Shown here: piece after piece, positions 22,724 through 30,183 of the stretch | Layout of the letters: each line of letters starts with the position of its first letter | How positions within the stretch are numbered: the stretch's first letter is position 1 | Source: Escherichia coli | Lineage (GTDB): Bacteria; Pseudomonadota; Gammaproteobacteria; Enterobacterales; Enterobacteriaceae | Assembly: GCF_003334815.1 (NCBI RefSeq) | Contig: NZ_QOWO01000011.1 | Reading direction: 5' to 3' (one strand) | Length of the DNA stretch: 64,000 nt | Program-made: the position numbers and the translations under genes | Notes under the pieces: model-generated | Seen by the model: the letters and a program-made list of their open reading frames with translations, nothing else | What the model was told of the DNA's origin: nothing | Database searches by the model: none

Positions 22724-23629
22724 ATGCGTCGAACGTTTATCAAAAAAGAAGGCGTCGTCATCACGACGCTGGCCCGTTATTTGTTGGGTGAAAAGTGCGG
22801 TAATCGATTGAAAACCATAGATGAGCTGGCAAATGAATGCCGTTCATCCGTTGGCCTGACGCAGGCCGCGTTGAAAACGCTGGAATCAAGCGGAGCGATA
22901 CGGATTGAACGCCGTGGGCGCAATGGCAGTTATCTGGTCGAGATGGATAACAAAGCATTGCTGACTCATGTGGATATCAACAACGTGGTATGTGCAATGC
23001 CCTTGCCCTATACCCGTTTGTACGAAGGCCTGGCGAGCGGATTGAAAGCCCAGTTTGATGGCATTCCTTTTTACTATGCGCACATGCGTGGCGCGGATAT
23101 TCGCGTGGAGTGTCTGCTTAATGGCGTGTATGACATGGCGGTGGTTTCGCGACTAGCGGCGGAAAGTTATCTCACGCAAAAAGGCTTATGCCTCGCGCTG
23201 GAGTTGGGGCCGCACACCTACGTTGGCGAGCACCAGTTGATTTGCCGTAAAGGCGAGTCCGCAAACGTGAAGCGCGTGGGGCTGGATAACCGTTCGGCGG
23301 ATCAGAAAATCATGACCGATGTTTTTTTTGGCGGTAGTGATGTGGAACGAGTCGATCTCTCTTATCACGAGAGTTTACAACGCATTGTTAAAGGCGATGT
23401 CGATGCGGTGATCTGGAACGTGGTGGCGGAAAACGAACTGACCATGCTGGGATTAGAGGCGACGCCGCTCACAGACGATCCGCGATTTTTACAGGCCACC
23501 GAAGCCGTGGTCCTGACGCGAGTCGATGATTACCCAATGCAACAACTGCTGCGTGCCGTTGTAGATAAACACGCCCTGCTCGCCCATCAACAACGGGTAG
23601 TGAGTGGGGAACAGGAACCGAGTTATTAA
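22724..23629 (+). CDS. yhfZ: Putative transcriptional regulator YhfZ (N-terminal winged-HTH, C-terminal ligand-binding-like domain), 301 aa
   Basis: ORF track; recognised as YhfZ; first gene of yhfZYXW-php-yhfUTS cluster. Confidence 0.88.
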   Translation: MRRTFIKKEGVVITTLARYLLGEKCGNRLKTIDELANECRSSVGLTQAALKTLESSGAIRIERRGRNGSYLVEMDNKALLTHVDINNVVCAMPLPYTRLYEGLASGLKAQFDGIPFYYAHMRGADIRVECLLNGVYDMAVVSRLAAESYLTQKGLCLALELGPHTYVGEHQLICRKGESANVKRVGLDNRSADQKIMTDVFFGGSDVERVDLSYHESLQRIVKGDVDAVIWNVVAENELTMLGLEATPLTDDPRFLQATEAVVLTRVDDYPMQQLLRAVVDKHALLAHQQRVVSGEQEPSY

Positions 23630-23645
23630 ACGAAAGGCATCTGAT

Positions 23646-24008
23646 ATGGAAACCAGACTCAACCTGCTTTGCGAGGCAGGCGTTATTGATAAGGACATCT
23701 GCAAAGGCATGATGCAGGTCGTCAACGTACTGGAAACAGAGTGCCATCTGCCGGTGCGCAGTGAGCAAGGAACGATGGCGATGACACATATGGCGAGTGC
23801 ACTGATGCGCAGTCGCCGTGGTGAAGAAATAGAGCCGCTGGATAACGAGTTGCTGGCAGAACTGGCGCAATCCAGCCACTGGCAAGCCGTTGTGCAATTG
23901 CATCAGGTGTTGTTGAAGGAATTCGCACTGGAAGTTAACCCGTGTGAAGAAGGCTATTTGCTGGCCAACCTTTATGGATTATGGATGGCTGCTAACGAAG
24001 AGGTTTGA
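23646..24008 (+). CDS. yhfY: Small protein YhfY of unknown function, 120 aa
   Basis: ORF track 23604..24008 trimmed to METRLNLLCEAG (ATG 23646). Confidence 0.8.
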   Translation: METRLNLLCEAGVIDKDICKGMMQVVNVLETECHLPVRSEQGTMAMTHMASALMRSRRGEEIEPLDNELLAELAQSSHWQAVVQLHQVLLKEFALEVNPCEEGYLLANLYGLWMAANEEV

Positions 24009-24091
24009 AGCTCCCGACAAATCCACGTCGCACAACCTAAATATTCAAAAAAATGAATATTTAATTCAAGGAACAGAAACGAGGCAACAAG

Positions 24092-27720: not shown

Positions 27721-27731
27721 AAGGCACGACT

Positions 27732-29036
27732 ATGGATCTGTATATTCAGATTATCGTGGTGGCGTGCCTGACGGGTATGACATCGCTTCTGGCGCATCGC
27801 TCGGCGGCTGTTTTTCATGACGGCATCCGCCCGATCCTGCCGCAACTGATTGAAGGCTATATGAACCGTCGCGAGGCGGGGAGTATCGCTTTTGGTCTGA
27901 GCATTGGTTTTGTGGCCTCGGTGGGGATCTCTTTTACCCTGAAAACCGGGCTGCTCAACGCATGGTTACTCTTTCTTCCTACCGATATCCTCGGCGTCCT
28001 GGCGATAAACAGCCTGATGGCGTTTGGTCTTGGCGCTATCTGGGGCGTGTTGATCCTTACTTGCCTGTTGCCAGTAAACCAGCTGCTGACCGCGCTGCCG
28101 GTGGATGTATTAGGTAGCCTGGGGGAATTAAGCTCGCCGGTGGTTTCAGCTTTTGCACTGTTCCCGCTGGTGGCGATTTTCTACCAGTTTGGCTGGAAGC
28201 AAAGTCTGATCGCCGCCGTGGTGGTACTGATGACCCGTGTGGTAGTCGTGCGCTATTTCCCACATCTTAACCCTGAATCCATCGAAATCTTTATTGGCAT
28301 GGTGATGCTGCTGGGGATCGCGATAACTCACGACCTGCGTCATCGTGATGAAAATGACATTGATGCCAGCGGGCTTTCGGTGTTTGAAGAACGCACGTCA
28401 CGGATTATCAAAAACTTACCCTATATCGCCATCGTGGGAGCATTGATTGCCGCCGTTGCCAGCATGAAGATTTTTGCTGGCAGTGAAGTGTCGATCTTCA
28501 CACTGGAGAAAGCATATTCCGCAGGCGTAACGCCGGAACAATCGCAAACGCTGATTAATCAGGCGGCTCTGGCAGAATTTATGCGCGGACTGGGGGTTGT
28601 GCCGTTGATTGCCACCACCGCGTTAGCAACGGGTGTGTATGCAGTTGCGGGCTTTACCTTTGTTTATGCGGTGGGCTATCTCTCGCCGAATCCGATGGTT
28701 GCAGCGGTATTAGGCGCAGTGGTTATTTCGGCGGAAGTCTTGCTGCTTCGTTCGATCGGCAAATGGCTGGGACGCTACCCGTCGGTGCGTAATGCGTCGG
28801 ATAACATCCGTAACGCCATGAATATGCTGATGGAAGTGGCGCTGCTGGTCGGTTCGATTTTCGCAGCAATTAAGATGGCGGGTTATACCGGATTCTCTAT
28901 CGCGGTTGCCATTTACTTCCTCAACGAATCCCTGGGCCGTCCGGTACAGAAAATGGCGGCACCGGTCGTGGCAGTAATGATCACCGGTATTCTGCTGAAT
29001 GTTCTTTACTGGCTTGGCCTGTTCGTTCCGGCTTAA
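27732..29036 (+). CDS. yhfT: Predicted polytopic inner membrane transporter YhfT, 434 aa
   Basis: ORF track; strongly hydrophobic throughout. Confidence 0.88.
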   Translation: MDLYIQIIVVACLTGMTSLLAHRSAAVFHDGIRPILPQLIEGYMNRREAGSIAFGLSIGFVASVGISFTLKTGLLNAWLLFLPTDILGVLAINSLMAFGLGAIWGVLILTCLLPVNQLLTALPVDVLGSLGELSSPVVSAFALFPLVAIFYQFGWKQSLIAAVVVLMTRVVVVRYFPHLNPESIEIFIGMVMLLGIAITHDLRHRDENDIDASGLSVFEERTSRIIKNLPYIAIVGALIAAVASMKIFAGSEVSIFTLEKAYSAGVTPEQSQTLINQAALAEFMRGLGVVPLIATTALATGVYAVAGFTFVYAVGYLSPNPMVAAVLGAVVISAEVLLLRSIGKWLGRYPSVRNASDNIRNAMNMLMEVALLVGSIFAAIKMAGYTGFSIAVAIYFLNESLGRPVQKMAAPVVAVMITGILLNVLYWLGLFVPA

Positions 29037-29047
29037 GGAAGGCACCT

Positions 29048-30183
29048 ATGAAGACGTTTCCTCTGCAAAGCCTGACGATTATTGAGGCGCAGCAAAAGCA
29101 GTTTGCGCTGGTGGATAGCATTTGTCGCCATTTCCCCGGCAGCGAGTTTCTTACTGGCGGTGATTTAGGCTTAACGCCAGGACTGAATCAACCGCGCGTT
29201 ACCCAGCGTGTGGAACAGGTGCTGGCTGATGCATTTCACGCACAGGCTGCGGCGCTGGTGCAGGGCGCGGGGACTGGCGCGATTCGCGCCGGGCTGGCGG
29301 CTTTGCTCAAACCGGGGCAGCGTCTTCTGGTGCATGACGCGCCTGTTTACCCGACGACACGGGTTATTATTGAGCAGATGGGGCTGACGCGCCTGTTTAC
29401 CCGACGACACGGGTTATTATTGAGCAGATGGGGCTGACGCTTATTACTGTTGATTTCAATGACCTGTCGGCACTGAAGCAGGTCGTCGACGAGCAACAAC
29501 CGGATGCGGCGCTGGTGCAGCATACGCGCCAGCAGCCGCAGGACAGCTACGTGCTGGCAGATGTGCTGGCAACGTTGCGCGCGGCAGGTGTTCCAGCGTT
29601 AACCGATGACAACTATGCGGTGATGAAGGTGGCTCGAATCGGCTGTGAATGCGGCGCGAATGTCTCGACATTTTCCTGCTTCAAGCTATTTGGGCCAGAG
29701 GGTGTTGGTGCAGTGGTCGGCGATGCTGATGTTATCAACCGTATTCGCGCCACGCTTTACTCCGGCGGTAGCCAGATCCAGGGCGCACAGGCGCTGGAAG
29801 TATTGCGTGGTCTGGTGTTTGCGCCAGTGATGCACGCGGTGCAGGCAGGGGTATCTGAACGGTTGCTGGCTTTGCTTAACGGTGGTGCGGTGCCGGAAGT
29901 GAAAAGCGCGGTGATTGCTAATGCGCAGTCGAAGGTGTTGATTGTCGAGTTTCATCAGCCGATTGCCGCCAGAGTGCTGGAAGAGGCGCAAAAGCGCGGT
30001 GCCTTGCCTTACCCGGTGGGTGCAGAGTCGAAATATGAAATCCCGCCGCTCTTTTATCGCCTTTCCGGAACGTTTCGCCAGGCGAATCCACAATCAGAAC
30101 ATTGTGCGATTCGCATTAACCCGAATCGCAGCGGTGAAGAGACGGTGCTGCGGATTTTGCGTGAGAGTATTGCCAGTATTTAA
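29048..30183 (+). pseudogene. yhfS: yhfS (predicted PLP-dependent enzyme) disrupted by a 50-bp tandem duplication; reads as two ORFs 29048..29437 and 29428..30183
   Basis: Copies at 29341-29390 and 29391-29440 are identical; the second copy shifts the frame and reaches TGA at 29435-29437; removing one copy gives a continuous 361-codon ORF (...VIIEQMGLTLITVDFNDL...). Confidence 0.85.
29341..29440 (+). repeat. Perfect 2 x 50 bp tandem direct duplication (unit gcctgtttacccgacgacacgggttattattgagcagatggggctgacgc)
   Basis: Read directly from sequence; 6-bp microhomology (tgacgc) at the upstream junction 29335-29340 and at unit end. Confidence 0.97.

Follow-up and report, generated by a model that had tools for sequence, protein, structure and literature searches.

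The eight genes yhfZ, yhfY, yhfX, yhfW, php, yhfU, yhfT and yhfS lie on one strand at positions 22724-30183 of the window, i.e., the whole 64,000-nt stretch of Escherichia coli DNA that was analysed, with trpS on one side and the convergent frl operon on the other (Table 1). Annotated E. coli chromosomes with exactly these eight genes between trpS and frlR-frlA match this region at 99.9-100% identity, frlR being annotated on the opposite strand, and the gene identities proposed earlier from the letters alone (hereafter the sequence-only reading) are borne out. Seven of the eight genes are intact here and 99-100% identical to the reference. The tight, co-directional packing described in the same reading is also found, no gap exceeding 83 nt, but of its several start/stop overlaps only two exist, namely yhfX/yhfW (1 nt) and yhfW/php (4 nt); the remaining intergenic gaps are, in gene order, 16, 83, 10, 11, and 11 nt. 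The 83-nt gap, between yhfY and yhfX, could be the site of a second promoter. The starts previously taken for the long ORFs of yhfY (23604) and yhfU (27328) are too early, since RefSeq places them at 23646 and 27367 and the N-termini of homologues from other phyla agree. A terminator scan of the + strand gave only weak terminator-like matches within the cluster, none of them convincing. Together with the common direction and the short gaps, this is consistent with co-transcription of the yhf genes as a single operon.

Around the start of yhfZ, the GC content falls to 0.44 (22500-22999) vs. about 0.53 in the flanks, and no strong sigma-70 consensus was found on the + strand of the leader. The gene yhfZ is among those listed with BIMEs ahead of them (PMC2965389), and the REP copies in this upstream boundary account for about 38 additional matches per E. 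coli genome.

Table 1. Features of the yhf locus and its boundaries (window coordinates).
Feature	Position	Strand	Description
REP/BIME repeats	about 22466-22560	+	Upstream boundary; read from sequence
trpS intrinsic terminator	22581-22602	+	Terminator scan: 9-bp stem, 5 GC pairs, T-run
AT-rich leader, ~120 nt	22603-22723	+	Presumed yhfZ promoter/operator region
yhfZ	22724-23629	+	301 aa; DNA-binding regulator, HTH_41 + YhfZ_C
yhfY	23646-24008	+	120 aa; stand-alone PRD domain (by profile), invariant His48
yhfX	24092-25255	+	387 aa; fold-type III PLP enzyme, Ala_racemase_N + YhfX-like_C
yhfW	25255-26481	+	408 aa; phosphopentomutase-like metallo-phosphomutase
php	26478-27356	+	292 aa; PTE-family binuclear-metal hydrolase
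yhfU	27367-27720	+	DUF2620; predicted RpiB/LacAB-like fold; Cys52-x-Thr/Ser54 in Gly-rich loop
yhfT	27732-29036	+	434 aa; polytopic membrane protein, presumed permease
yhfS	29048-30183	+	Fold-type I PLP enzyme; pseudogene here; ORFs 29048-29437 and 29428-30183
Perfect 50-bp tandem duplication	29340-29439 (29340-29389 = 29390-29439)	+	Flanked by TGACG; inside yhfS
Repeat-rich convergent spacer ahead of frlR	30184-30334	.	Downstream boundary; read from sequence
G-rich palindromic element	about 30226-30262		In yhfS-frlR spacer
REP	about 30286-30334		In yhfS-frlR spacer

The last gene had been described as disrupted, and the lesion can be specified as a perfect 50-bp tandem duplication. TRF delimits it at 29335-29440 (period 50, 2.1 copies, 100% match), and relative to strain D9 it is a clean 50-nt insertion, bounded by the 5-nt direct repeat TGACG, that puts translation out of frame beyond residue 114. 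A 48-nt probe over the new junction reached at least 80% coverage in none of the 5,426 complete E. coli genomes. The intact form of the protein is that of PDB 4J8L; it carries a PF00155 aminotransferase-fold domain with invariant D170 and K196, as in fold-type I PLP enzymes, and its score against the methionine gamma-lyase model (40.5 bits, cut-off 666) does not support that function.

The second PLP enzyme, YhfX, belongs to fold type III, with a PF01168 Ala_racemase_N domain and the invariant Schiff-base Lys61; the Pfam domains and invariant lysines of both proteins uphold their earlier designation as PLP enzymes. YhfX has been solved as "uncharacterized protein YhfX" (PDB 4KBX), and assignment as an Orr racemase is not supported at 28 bits against a cut-off of 480. 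YhfW, correctly foreseen as a phosphopentomutase-like protein with a GHSHH motif, is matched by PPM structures at E 3e-31 and scores 741.9 bits vs. 254 with PRK12383, the model of a paralogous subfamily; as DeoB phosphopentomutase it fails (TIGR01696, 145.8 bits vs. 341.2). Across 19 sequences, YhfW retains D10, D83, T/S84, H88, D298, H302, H339, and H350, which comprise the metal-binding Asp/His and the Thr/Ser nucleophile of an alkaline-phosphatase-superfamily phosphomutase. Php (PRK09875, 653.6 bits) is identical to PDB 1BF6 and 4LEF and has the expected HxH motif (AHEHLHID). All six metal ligands of a binuclear PTE/amidohydrolase center (H12, H14, E125, H158, H186, and D243) do not vary among 20 homologues and are common to other PTE-family hydrolases, i.e., the phospho-sugar lactonases of NF045706, the phosphotriesterase-like lactonases, and PTER. 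Php stands at about equal distance from lactonases, an esterase, and phospho-sugar lactonases (100-138 bits), and its score as a phospho-furanose lactonase (NF045706) is 104.3 bits vs. a cut-off of 630. PTER, its mammalian relative, is an N-acetyl amidohydrolase (PMC11374699, PMC13311154). Judged by its sequence, Php could act on an ester, a lactone, or an amide. The catalytic residues of Php, YhfW, YhfX, and YhfS are kept across phyla, from Enterobacteria to Clostridia.

Regarding regulation, YhfZ exceeds the cut-off of the NCBIfam YhfZ_full equivalog (373.6 bits vs. 260), in agreement with its earlier description as regulator-like, and contains the Pfam domains PF14502 and PF14503. This equivalog and the winged-helix N-terminus place it among GntR-family regulators, the Pfam match being HTH_41 and not PF00392 GntR; its C-terminal domain has been solved as "hypothetical protein yhfZ" (2OZZ). 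YhfY and YhfU are small, as the sequence-only reading stated, but they need no longer be called unknown. The YhfY family profile matches LicT PRD2 (1TLV) at E 1.5e-9 and the BglG-family 3GWH at 2.8e-8, Pfam PF00874 is found on distant homologues, and 21 homologues share H48, A52, R55, and E101 without exception. Judged by these profile matches and the conserved phosphorylatable histidine, YhfY consists of a PRD domain standing alone, in which one histidine is invariant, an assignment that is new here. As in BglG/LicT-type regulators, this histidine aligns with the conserved PRD histidine, the profile being that of LicT PRD2. In contrast to them, YhfY amounts to one PRD (about 120 aa) devoid of RNA-binding or DNA-binding domains, DNA binding is left to another protein (YhfZ), and the second PRD histidine is replaced by Asn in gamma-proteobacterial YhfY. 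PRDs are regulatory targets of HPr; we know of no precedent for a PRD in a phosphocarrier role.

The predicted model of YhfU (pLDDT 94.9) has only RpiB/LacAB isomerases as its best structural matches, which points to the same fold. As in these isomerases, a Cys-x-Thr motif follows strand 3 in a Gly-rich loop, Cys52 and Thr/Ser54 being conserved in all 19 sequences compared. However, of the RpiB catalytic set (Asp-His, Cys, Thr, His-Asn, and C-terminal Arg residues), only these two are conserved, the other active-site and phosphate-binding residues not being so, and the protein ends at residue 117, about 30 residues short of RpiB. The RpiB/LacAB profile match is not significant (E 0.1-0.6) and, unlike the genes of these isomerases, yhfU is always paired with a membrane protein gene: it lies directly upstream of yhfT in every mapped cluster. 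YhfU also does not qualify as a Cys-type PTS EIIB, since it has no EIIB fold in which a phospho-Cys P-loop follows strand 1; weak matches link YhfU to the EF_0830 family (E 0.002 and 0.011). YhfT, retained as a polytopic membrane protein and presumed permease, models confidently, and the computed model matches no solved transporter fold, including the Glc/Lac, Asc/Gat, and Man types of PTS EIIC; as modelled, it is a member of a small family with no solved-fold relative. This dissimilarity and the absence of an EIIA-like gene from the cluster count against a PTS reading. An amidase-signature ORF follows YhfT or is fused to it in locus L061 and in C. citroniae G5HJH7.

The eight proteins were compared by tblastn with 85 loci from Enterobacterales, Vibrionaceae, Fusobacteriota, Clostridia, and Bacilli, and 24 diverse clusters were inventoried ORF by ORF. 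By this comparison the cluster forms a self-contained and mobile module built on a core of seven genes (Z, Y, P, U, T, X, and W), which is reported here for the first time. The sub-blocks Z-Y, P-U-T, and X-W stay together and are reshuffled between lineages. The conserved cluster of eight genes initially described is refined in that yhfS is accessory and dispensable-looking: it is missing in all Vibrionaceae, Yersinia, Ewingella, L036, L039, and several Clostridia, and several Yersinia have also lost yhfW. Proximity to frl was correct as to position but is incidental, one E. coli contig (L004) having yhf without frl and O157:H7 having frlR next to trpS without yhf. Cluster genes included no kinase in any of the 24 inventoried clusters. 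HPr-like ORFs directly follow yhfW in L078, L080, and L081, ptsI does so in L074 and is convergent in L089; these five loci include two pairs of close relatives, and such adjacency, known from several Firmicutes, could reflect ordinary PRD regulation. In two Bacilli (L077 and L079), nagB is co-directional with the cluster and immediately follows its last gene despite a differing X/W order, and both copies pass TIGR00502 (293.6 and 261.9 bits, cut-off 236.9). The rarity of this linkage (2 of about 90 loci) and the dispensability of the cluster in E. coli count against a PTS/amino-sugar reading. Other flanking genes are inconsistent.

Several known systems resemble the yhf cluster in part. As in the nag/aga amino-sugar operons, an amidohydrolase-superfamily hydrolase accompanies enzymes acting on phosphorylated amino sugars, a bona fide nagB occurs in the operon of the two Bacilli, and, with no kinase, phosphate would come from uptake. 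However, yhf has no canonical EIIA, EIIB, or EIIC, its hydrolase is of the PTE branch and not NagA, and it has in addition a phosphomutase plus one or two PLP enzymes, for which nag/aga has no need. The DGL system, in which a PLP enzyme deaminates an amino-sugar acid that the PTS has phosphorylated, likewise has no kinase, but YhfS and YhfX have no detectable sequence match to DGL in a PDB search, and yhf has neither aldolase nor Man-type PTS. In the EF_0829-EF_0839/AHA_3910-3917 cluster (TIGR03577, TIGR03582), the EF_0829 PRD model matches YhfY (28 bits, E 1.6e-6) and EF_0830 is weakly matched by YhfU homologues. The logic there is the same, enzymes for a phosphorylated amino compound being preceded by membrane proteins and by two small proteins, one a PRD and the other Gly-rich with a Cys. 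The scores fall far short of the family cut-offs (69 and 141 bits), and the membrane component of yhf is YhfT rather than DUF4310/4311. The frl operon, adjoining in most E. coli, is also catabolic for a sugar-amine conjugate, but it is an independent module sharing no protein families with yhf.

Full-text literature, RefSeq names, and NCBIfam (June 2026) give no substrate for the cluster, as the sequence-only reading had stated, and neither phenotype nor transcript data were found in the literature; in papers of 2025 and 2026, YhfZ is still a "putative transcription factor" and YhfW is still a "putative mutase." For this long-known locus, we infer, tentatively and as a possibility somewhat short of probable, a PTS-wired operon, inducible by its substrate, for the breakdown of a rare sugar-like compound that bears an amine and is processed as a phosphate ester. 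The earlier theme of a phosphorylated or esterified amino compound is supported because a phosphomutase occurs without a kinase, because of the PRD/HPr/Enzyme I links, and because of nagB in the two Bacilli. YhfZ, with its DNA-binding and ligand domains, and YhfY would form a split PRD-type regulator whose activity would be set by HPr-dependent phosphorylation of YhfY His48. On the best reading the uptake module is unusual: YhfT may import the compound jointly with YhfU, phosphate being supplied by a relay from HPr through YhfY-His48 and YhfU-Cys52 to the substrate, unless the latter arrives already phosphorylated. Php would cleave an ester, lactone, or N-acyl bond, YhfW would shift the phosphate between positions, and YhfX would carry out a PLP step on the amino group, either epimerisation or deamination, with YhfS, where present, as an auxiliary PLP enzyme. 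Carbon would end as an amino-sugar 6-phosphate or fructose 6-phosphate, passing to NagB-type enzymes.

Phosphate could also have a more conventional origin. In an ordinary secondary-transport operon, YhfT would be a stand-alone permease, YhfU a true sugar-phosphate aldose-ketose isomerase paired with YhfW like RpiB with DeoB, and YhfY/HPr a matter of catabolite control only, phosphate coming from a housekeeping kinase or an imported organophosphate. The structural matches of YhfU and its conserved Cys-x-Thr, the chemically natural order of a PPM-like mutase and then an RpiB-like isomerase, the known regulation of PRDs by HPr, the genes for periplasmic acid phosphatases (e(P4), PhoC) that immediately follow the cluster in L036 and L039, and a PfkB kinase upstream in L083 all speak for this. 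It is nevertheless rather unlikely, given the short YhfU with its insignificant profile match, which on inspection lacks the N-terminal Asp-His, the His-Asn, and the C-terminal phosphate-binding Arg residues of RpiB; moreover, the invariable position of yhfU before yhfT suggests a transport partner and not a soluble pathway enzyme, and no kinase shows consistent linkage. A pathway for a non-sugar amino-acid derivative (homoserine-type lactone, N-acyl or esterified amino acid, or D-amino acid) is decidedly unlikely. Php would open the ring or amide, YhfX racemise, YhfS, a Cys/Met-metabolism PLP-like protein, catalyse gamma-/beta-elimination or transamination, and YhfW act as a phosphotransferase. 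Weak best matches of YhfS to methionine gamma-lyase and O-succinylhomoserine sulfhydrylase, ornithine racemase as the only named match of YhfX, the lactonases and N-acetyl-amino-acid amidohydrolases among Php relatives, weak matches of YhfW to a "proposed homoserine kinase" model, and the amidase-like YhfT partners point that way, but these matches are far below the family cut-offs (40 bits vs. 666, 28 vs. 480, and 18 vs. 446), YhfS-centered chemistry cannot be core because most lineages lack yhfS, and nagB, the mutase resembling PPM, and the RpiB-like fold argue for sugar phosphates.

With regards to the state of the locus in E. coli, it is improbable that it is a cryptic, decaying island, i.e., a horizontally acquired remnant expressed rarely or never, with the yhfS duplication as a step of gene loss. 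About 366 of the 5,426 complete genomes (about 7%), O157:H7 among them, cleanly lack the cluster, truncated or fused YhfT, YhfU, and YhfS are numerous among E. coli entries, yhfS is broken here, the spread across phyla is patchy (150 matches in 100,044 species), and no phenotype report was found in the literature searched. Yet about 93% of the complete genomes keep the cluster at a coverage of at least 80%, the other seven genes are intact here, the invariance of catalytic residues from Enterobacteria to Clostridia indicates purifying selection, and the duplication is a single recent event that the complete genomes do not share. That the break is an artefact of assembly or sequencing, with yhfS intact in the organism, is similarly hard to credit. 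Both 50-bp copies are 100% identical, the junction occurs in no other complete E. coli genome, and the flanks show no other difference from strains D9 and D4; an exact 50-bp duplication is, however, an atypical assembler error, and the bounding 5-nt repeat is as expected of replication slippage. We propose that the break is a recent slippage-type duplication which could revert, by which only an accessory last step has been lost, with no polar damage to the core genes.

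The yhf locus is not a discovery: it has long been annotated as an orphan operon. The eight co-directional ORFs that the sequence-only reading placed at 22724-30183 are borne out by ORF calls, and their gene names hold as well, with 99.9-100% identity to annotated E. coli chromosomes using these names, where the cluster is bounded by trpS and the convergent frlR-frlD-frlC-frlB-frlA. Likewise, no substrate or pathway was found in the open-access full-text literature, in line with the claim that none has been established. YhfW was still an uncharacterised putative mutase in a January 2026 paper, YhfZ was a putative transcription factor in a 2025 paper, and RefSeq and NCBIfam (June 2026) go no further than family-level names ("YhfT family protein", "DUF2620", "YhfX family PLP-dependent enzyme"). 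A literature match to "b3379" is the name of a plasmid and strain in work on vitamin C, irrelevant to the cluster. PDB deposits, labelled uncharacterised, exist for four of the eight proteins, namely the YhfZ C-domain (2OZZ), YhfX (4KBX), Php (1BF6/4LEF), and YhfS (4J8L); none has an activity, and yhf is among the larger E. coli operons still without a function. What is new here is a seven-gene core with accessory status of the broken yhfS, the assignment of YhfY to the PRD family and of YhfU to an RpiB-type fold, the lack of any solved-fold relative of YhfT, and a linkage to PTS and nagB genes. Taken together, these elements make the substrate question directly testable.

The layout of the locus is as expected for a single operon, and the earlier interpretation of one operon with an unassigned substrate is essentially right overall. 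The ORF starts first proposed for yhfY and yhfU lie too early compared with RefSeq. With the RefSeq starts, two overlaps are found (yhfX/yhfW, 1 nt; yhfW/php, 4 nt) and the remaining intergenic gaps measure 16, 83, 10, 11, and 11 nt. A terminator scan gave no convincing + strand terminator within the cluster, and no Rfam family matched over 22000-30600. Palindromic repeats occur on both flanks (Table), and yhfZ is also among the BIME-preceded genes in a published survey. Because of these repeats, an 8-kb query matches each E. coli genome at about 38 places. Between yhfS and frlR, a G-rich imperfect palindrome, cccctcgcccctttggggagagggttagggtgaggggaa (30226-30262), looks like a dispersed intergenic repeat, which we take to be possibly box C.

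Table. Positions of features in and around the yhf cluster
Feature	Position	Remark
REP/BIME repeats	22466-22560	upstream flank
trpS terminator, strong	22581-22602	upstream of cluster
AT-rich leader, ~120 nt		after trpS terminator
yhfY start	23646	RefSeq start mapped; matches N-termini of homologues from other phyla
yhfU start	27367	RefSeq start mapped; matches N-termini of homologues from other phyla
yhfS fragments	29048-29437 and 29428-30183	two ORFs
Perfect 50-bp tandem duplication	29340-29389 = 29390-29439	splits yhfS
REP/BIME-type palindromic repeats	30286-30334	other flank of cluster

The predicted disruption of the last gene is confirmed, yhfS being split into two ORFs. TRF returns a period of 50, 2.1 copies, and 100% identity for the duplication, which is bounded by the pentamer TGACG; against the comparison strain D9, yhfS differs by a clean 50-nt insertion and one SNP at 29330. 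The frameshift falls after residue 114; the first fragment is devoid of the invariant PLP residues D170 and K196, and the second of the N-terminal 110 residues. The form of the duplication is as expected for replication slippage, and precise reversion could occur; that it is an assembly artefact is very unlikely. At a coverage of at least 80%, a 48-nt probe of the junction had no match in any of 5,426 complete genomes, which marks the lesion as private and recent. As yhfS is last in the cluster, no polar effect on the other yhf genes is expected, and the lesion in itself is of minor importance. The SNP, a G/A difference from the otherwise identical D9, replaces Val by Met at position 95 of YhfS and lies shortly before the duplication.

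The locus was searched for across species genomes with a 10-sequence YhfT alignment as query, and neighborhoods were compared by tblastn of the eight E. coli proteins at 85 loci, with ORF inventories for 24 diverse loci. The YhfT family is small. It accounts for 303 representatives in a collection of 1.84 billion clusters at 50% identity, and the search of 100,044 species genomes gave 150 matches. Self-contained clusters can be found in Enterobacterales, Vibrionaceae, Sebaldella (Fusobacteriota), Clostridia, and Bacilli, and AFDB matches extend the range to Actinobacteria and one spirochaete. Gene order varies by lineage with sub-blocks retained (P stands for php and the other letters for the respective yhf genes): Z-Y-X-W-P-U-T-S in enterobacteria, Z-Y-P-U-T-X-W in vibrios, and Z-(Y)-U-T-P-(S)-X-W in Firmicutes. 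In all mapped clusters U lies immediately 5' of T, even when YhfT is only 27-31% identical to that of E. coli. yhfS is missing in all Vibrionaceae, in Yersinia, in Ewingella, at two enterobacterial loci, and in several of the Clostridia, and yhfW is missing in several Yersinia; the conserved core therefore comprises seven genes, and yhfS, the gene broken here, is an accessory member.

Within E. coli, 5,060 of 5,426 genomes carry the cluster at at least 80% coverage. The approximately 366 complete genomes that do not are natural deletion controls; in an O157:H7 strain (NZ_CP076230.1, 510540-510770), the whole cluster is cleanly absent and trpS abuts frlR. Conversely, in an E. coli metagenome contig (L004, 12400-12700) yhfL and cysG come immediately after yhfS; yhf is thus kept with frlABCDR missing, and the frl neighborhood is incidental.

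With regard to the individual proteins, a YhfY profile of 21 sequences matches LicT PRD2 with an E value of 1.5e-9. His48, Ala52, Arg55, and Glu101 are invariant in these sequences, and a second histidine is present in Clostridia only. YhfY is a stand-alone PRD. YhfU as a canonical EIIB is ruled out by fold rank and by the position of its Cys, and among the best 120 matches DUF2620 occurs only as stand-alone proteins of about 120 aa, bar a few E. coli read-through artefacts. Catalytic residues are kept throughout the putative enzymes: all six metal ligands in Php, the phosphomutase metal ligands and Thr/Ser nucleophile in YhfW, Lys61 in YhfX, and Asp170 and Lys196 in the YhfS family. Compared with functionally defined families, these four proteins reached no cut-off except that of PRK12383, a "phosphopentomutase" model passed by YhfW and built on YhfW itself. 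Among PDB sequences, YhfS matched no DgaE/DGL or SelA-type chain and, besides itself, gave weak Cys/Met-family matches only.

Several flanking genes are informative. HPr-like genes lie immediately 3' of yhfW at three loci (L078, L080, L081), and ptsI has this same position in L074 and a convergent orientation in L089. In Thalassobacillus and Melghirimyces, which differ in the order of X and W, a nagB gene passing the equivalog cut-off follows the last cluster gene on the same strand. The 24 clusters with an ORF inventory contain no kinase, though a phosphomutase is a core member. The other genes at Firmicute flanks (including those for hydrogenase, germination, glycyl-radical enzymes, and malate:quinone oxidoreductase) follow no consistent pattern and were left out of the evidence. 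Flanking hints of sugar acids are isolated cases, namely a glucarate-dehydratase-like gene (L085), a KDG-kinase-like gene (L083), and 2-hydroxyacid dehydrogenases (L077, L081).

Tentatively, yhf can be hypothesized to be a catabolic operon linked to the PTS, for a sugar-like compound that bears an amine and is processed as a phosphate ester; this general scheme is plausible but short of probable. Its anatomy alone is established, and we infer each mechanistic step. YhfZ and YhfY would form a split PRD-type regulator, and YhfT would import the compound with YhfU. Php would open an ester, lactone, or N-acyl bond; its family includes lactonases, and PTER, its relative in mammals, is an N-acetyl amidohydrolase (PMC11374699). 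YhfW would relocate the phosphate and YhfX would perform the amino-group chemistry, YhfS being optional, before the product is passed into the metabolism of amino-sugar 6-phosphates and fructose 6-phosphate.

This scheme has to be weighed against other readings. That YhfT is a conventional permease, YhfU a true isomerase, and the role of the PRD one of regulation only is rather unlikely. It is improbable that YhfY, YhfU, and YhfT constitute a new kind of PEP-dependent group-translocation system with EF_0829/EF_0830-type clusters as a sister family, in which HPr would pass its phosphoryl group to His48 of YhfY, His48 to Cys52 of the RpiB-fold YhfU, and YhfU to the substrate during its passage through YhfT. 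YhfT has no relative of solved fold, and against such a system stand the absence of an EIIA, the isomerase-like fold of YhfU, and the lack of an EIIC-like fold in YhfT; moreover, we know of no precedent for a PRD acting as a phosphocarrier. If the uptake module were nevertheless a new PTS-type system, the textbook transport paradigm would be extended; if not, a defined pathway for a gut or marine nutrient and the first fold assignment for DUF2620 would still be gained.

It is improbable that the compound degraded is an amino-acid derivative other than a sugar. It is also highly improbable that yhf, lacking in some E. coli genomes and retained in most, is a cryptic island decaying in this species.

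Some further arrangements can be mentioned. The ORFs after yhfT in L061 (343 aa, amidase-like) and L091 (341 aa) are mutually unrelated. In two enterobacterial loci devoid of yhfS, periplasmic acid phosphatase genes of the e(P4) lipoprotein family and PhoC lie directly 3' of yhfT (L036, 11339-12151; L039, 11341-13041). A distant PRD-U-T-PTE-S-X cluster (L086, 11815-17917) continues on the same strand with three ATP-grasp genes and an MFS transporter, an extension that may belong to an independent peptide-ligase cluster or may hint at a substrate containing an amino acid. Three Enterovibrio loci (L062, L068, L070) gave tblastn matches for yhfU, yhfT, yhfX, and yhfW and none for yhfZ, yhfY, or php; yhfW in L062 appears truncated or split (318 aa), and these loci may represent a reduced or decaying form. 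Numerous E. coli entries in the databases, e.g., P0002, P0005, P0012, P0076, and P0282, are fused or truncated read-throughs (php-yhfT, yhfU-yhfT, yhfS-yhfT), which suggests frequent frameshifts or deletions in the cluster across strains or assemblies. Finally, the AFDB entries A0A077ZJH0 ("Gasdermin-D [Trichuris trichiura]") and A0A0A2WJZ4 ("yhfT [Beauveria bassiana]") share 86-100% identity with YhfT of enterobacteria and are likely bacterial contamination or chimeras in eukaryotic assemblies.
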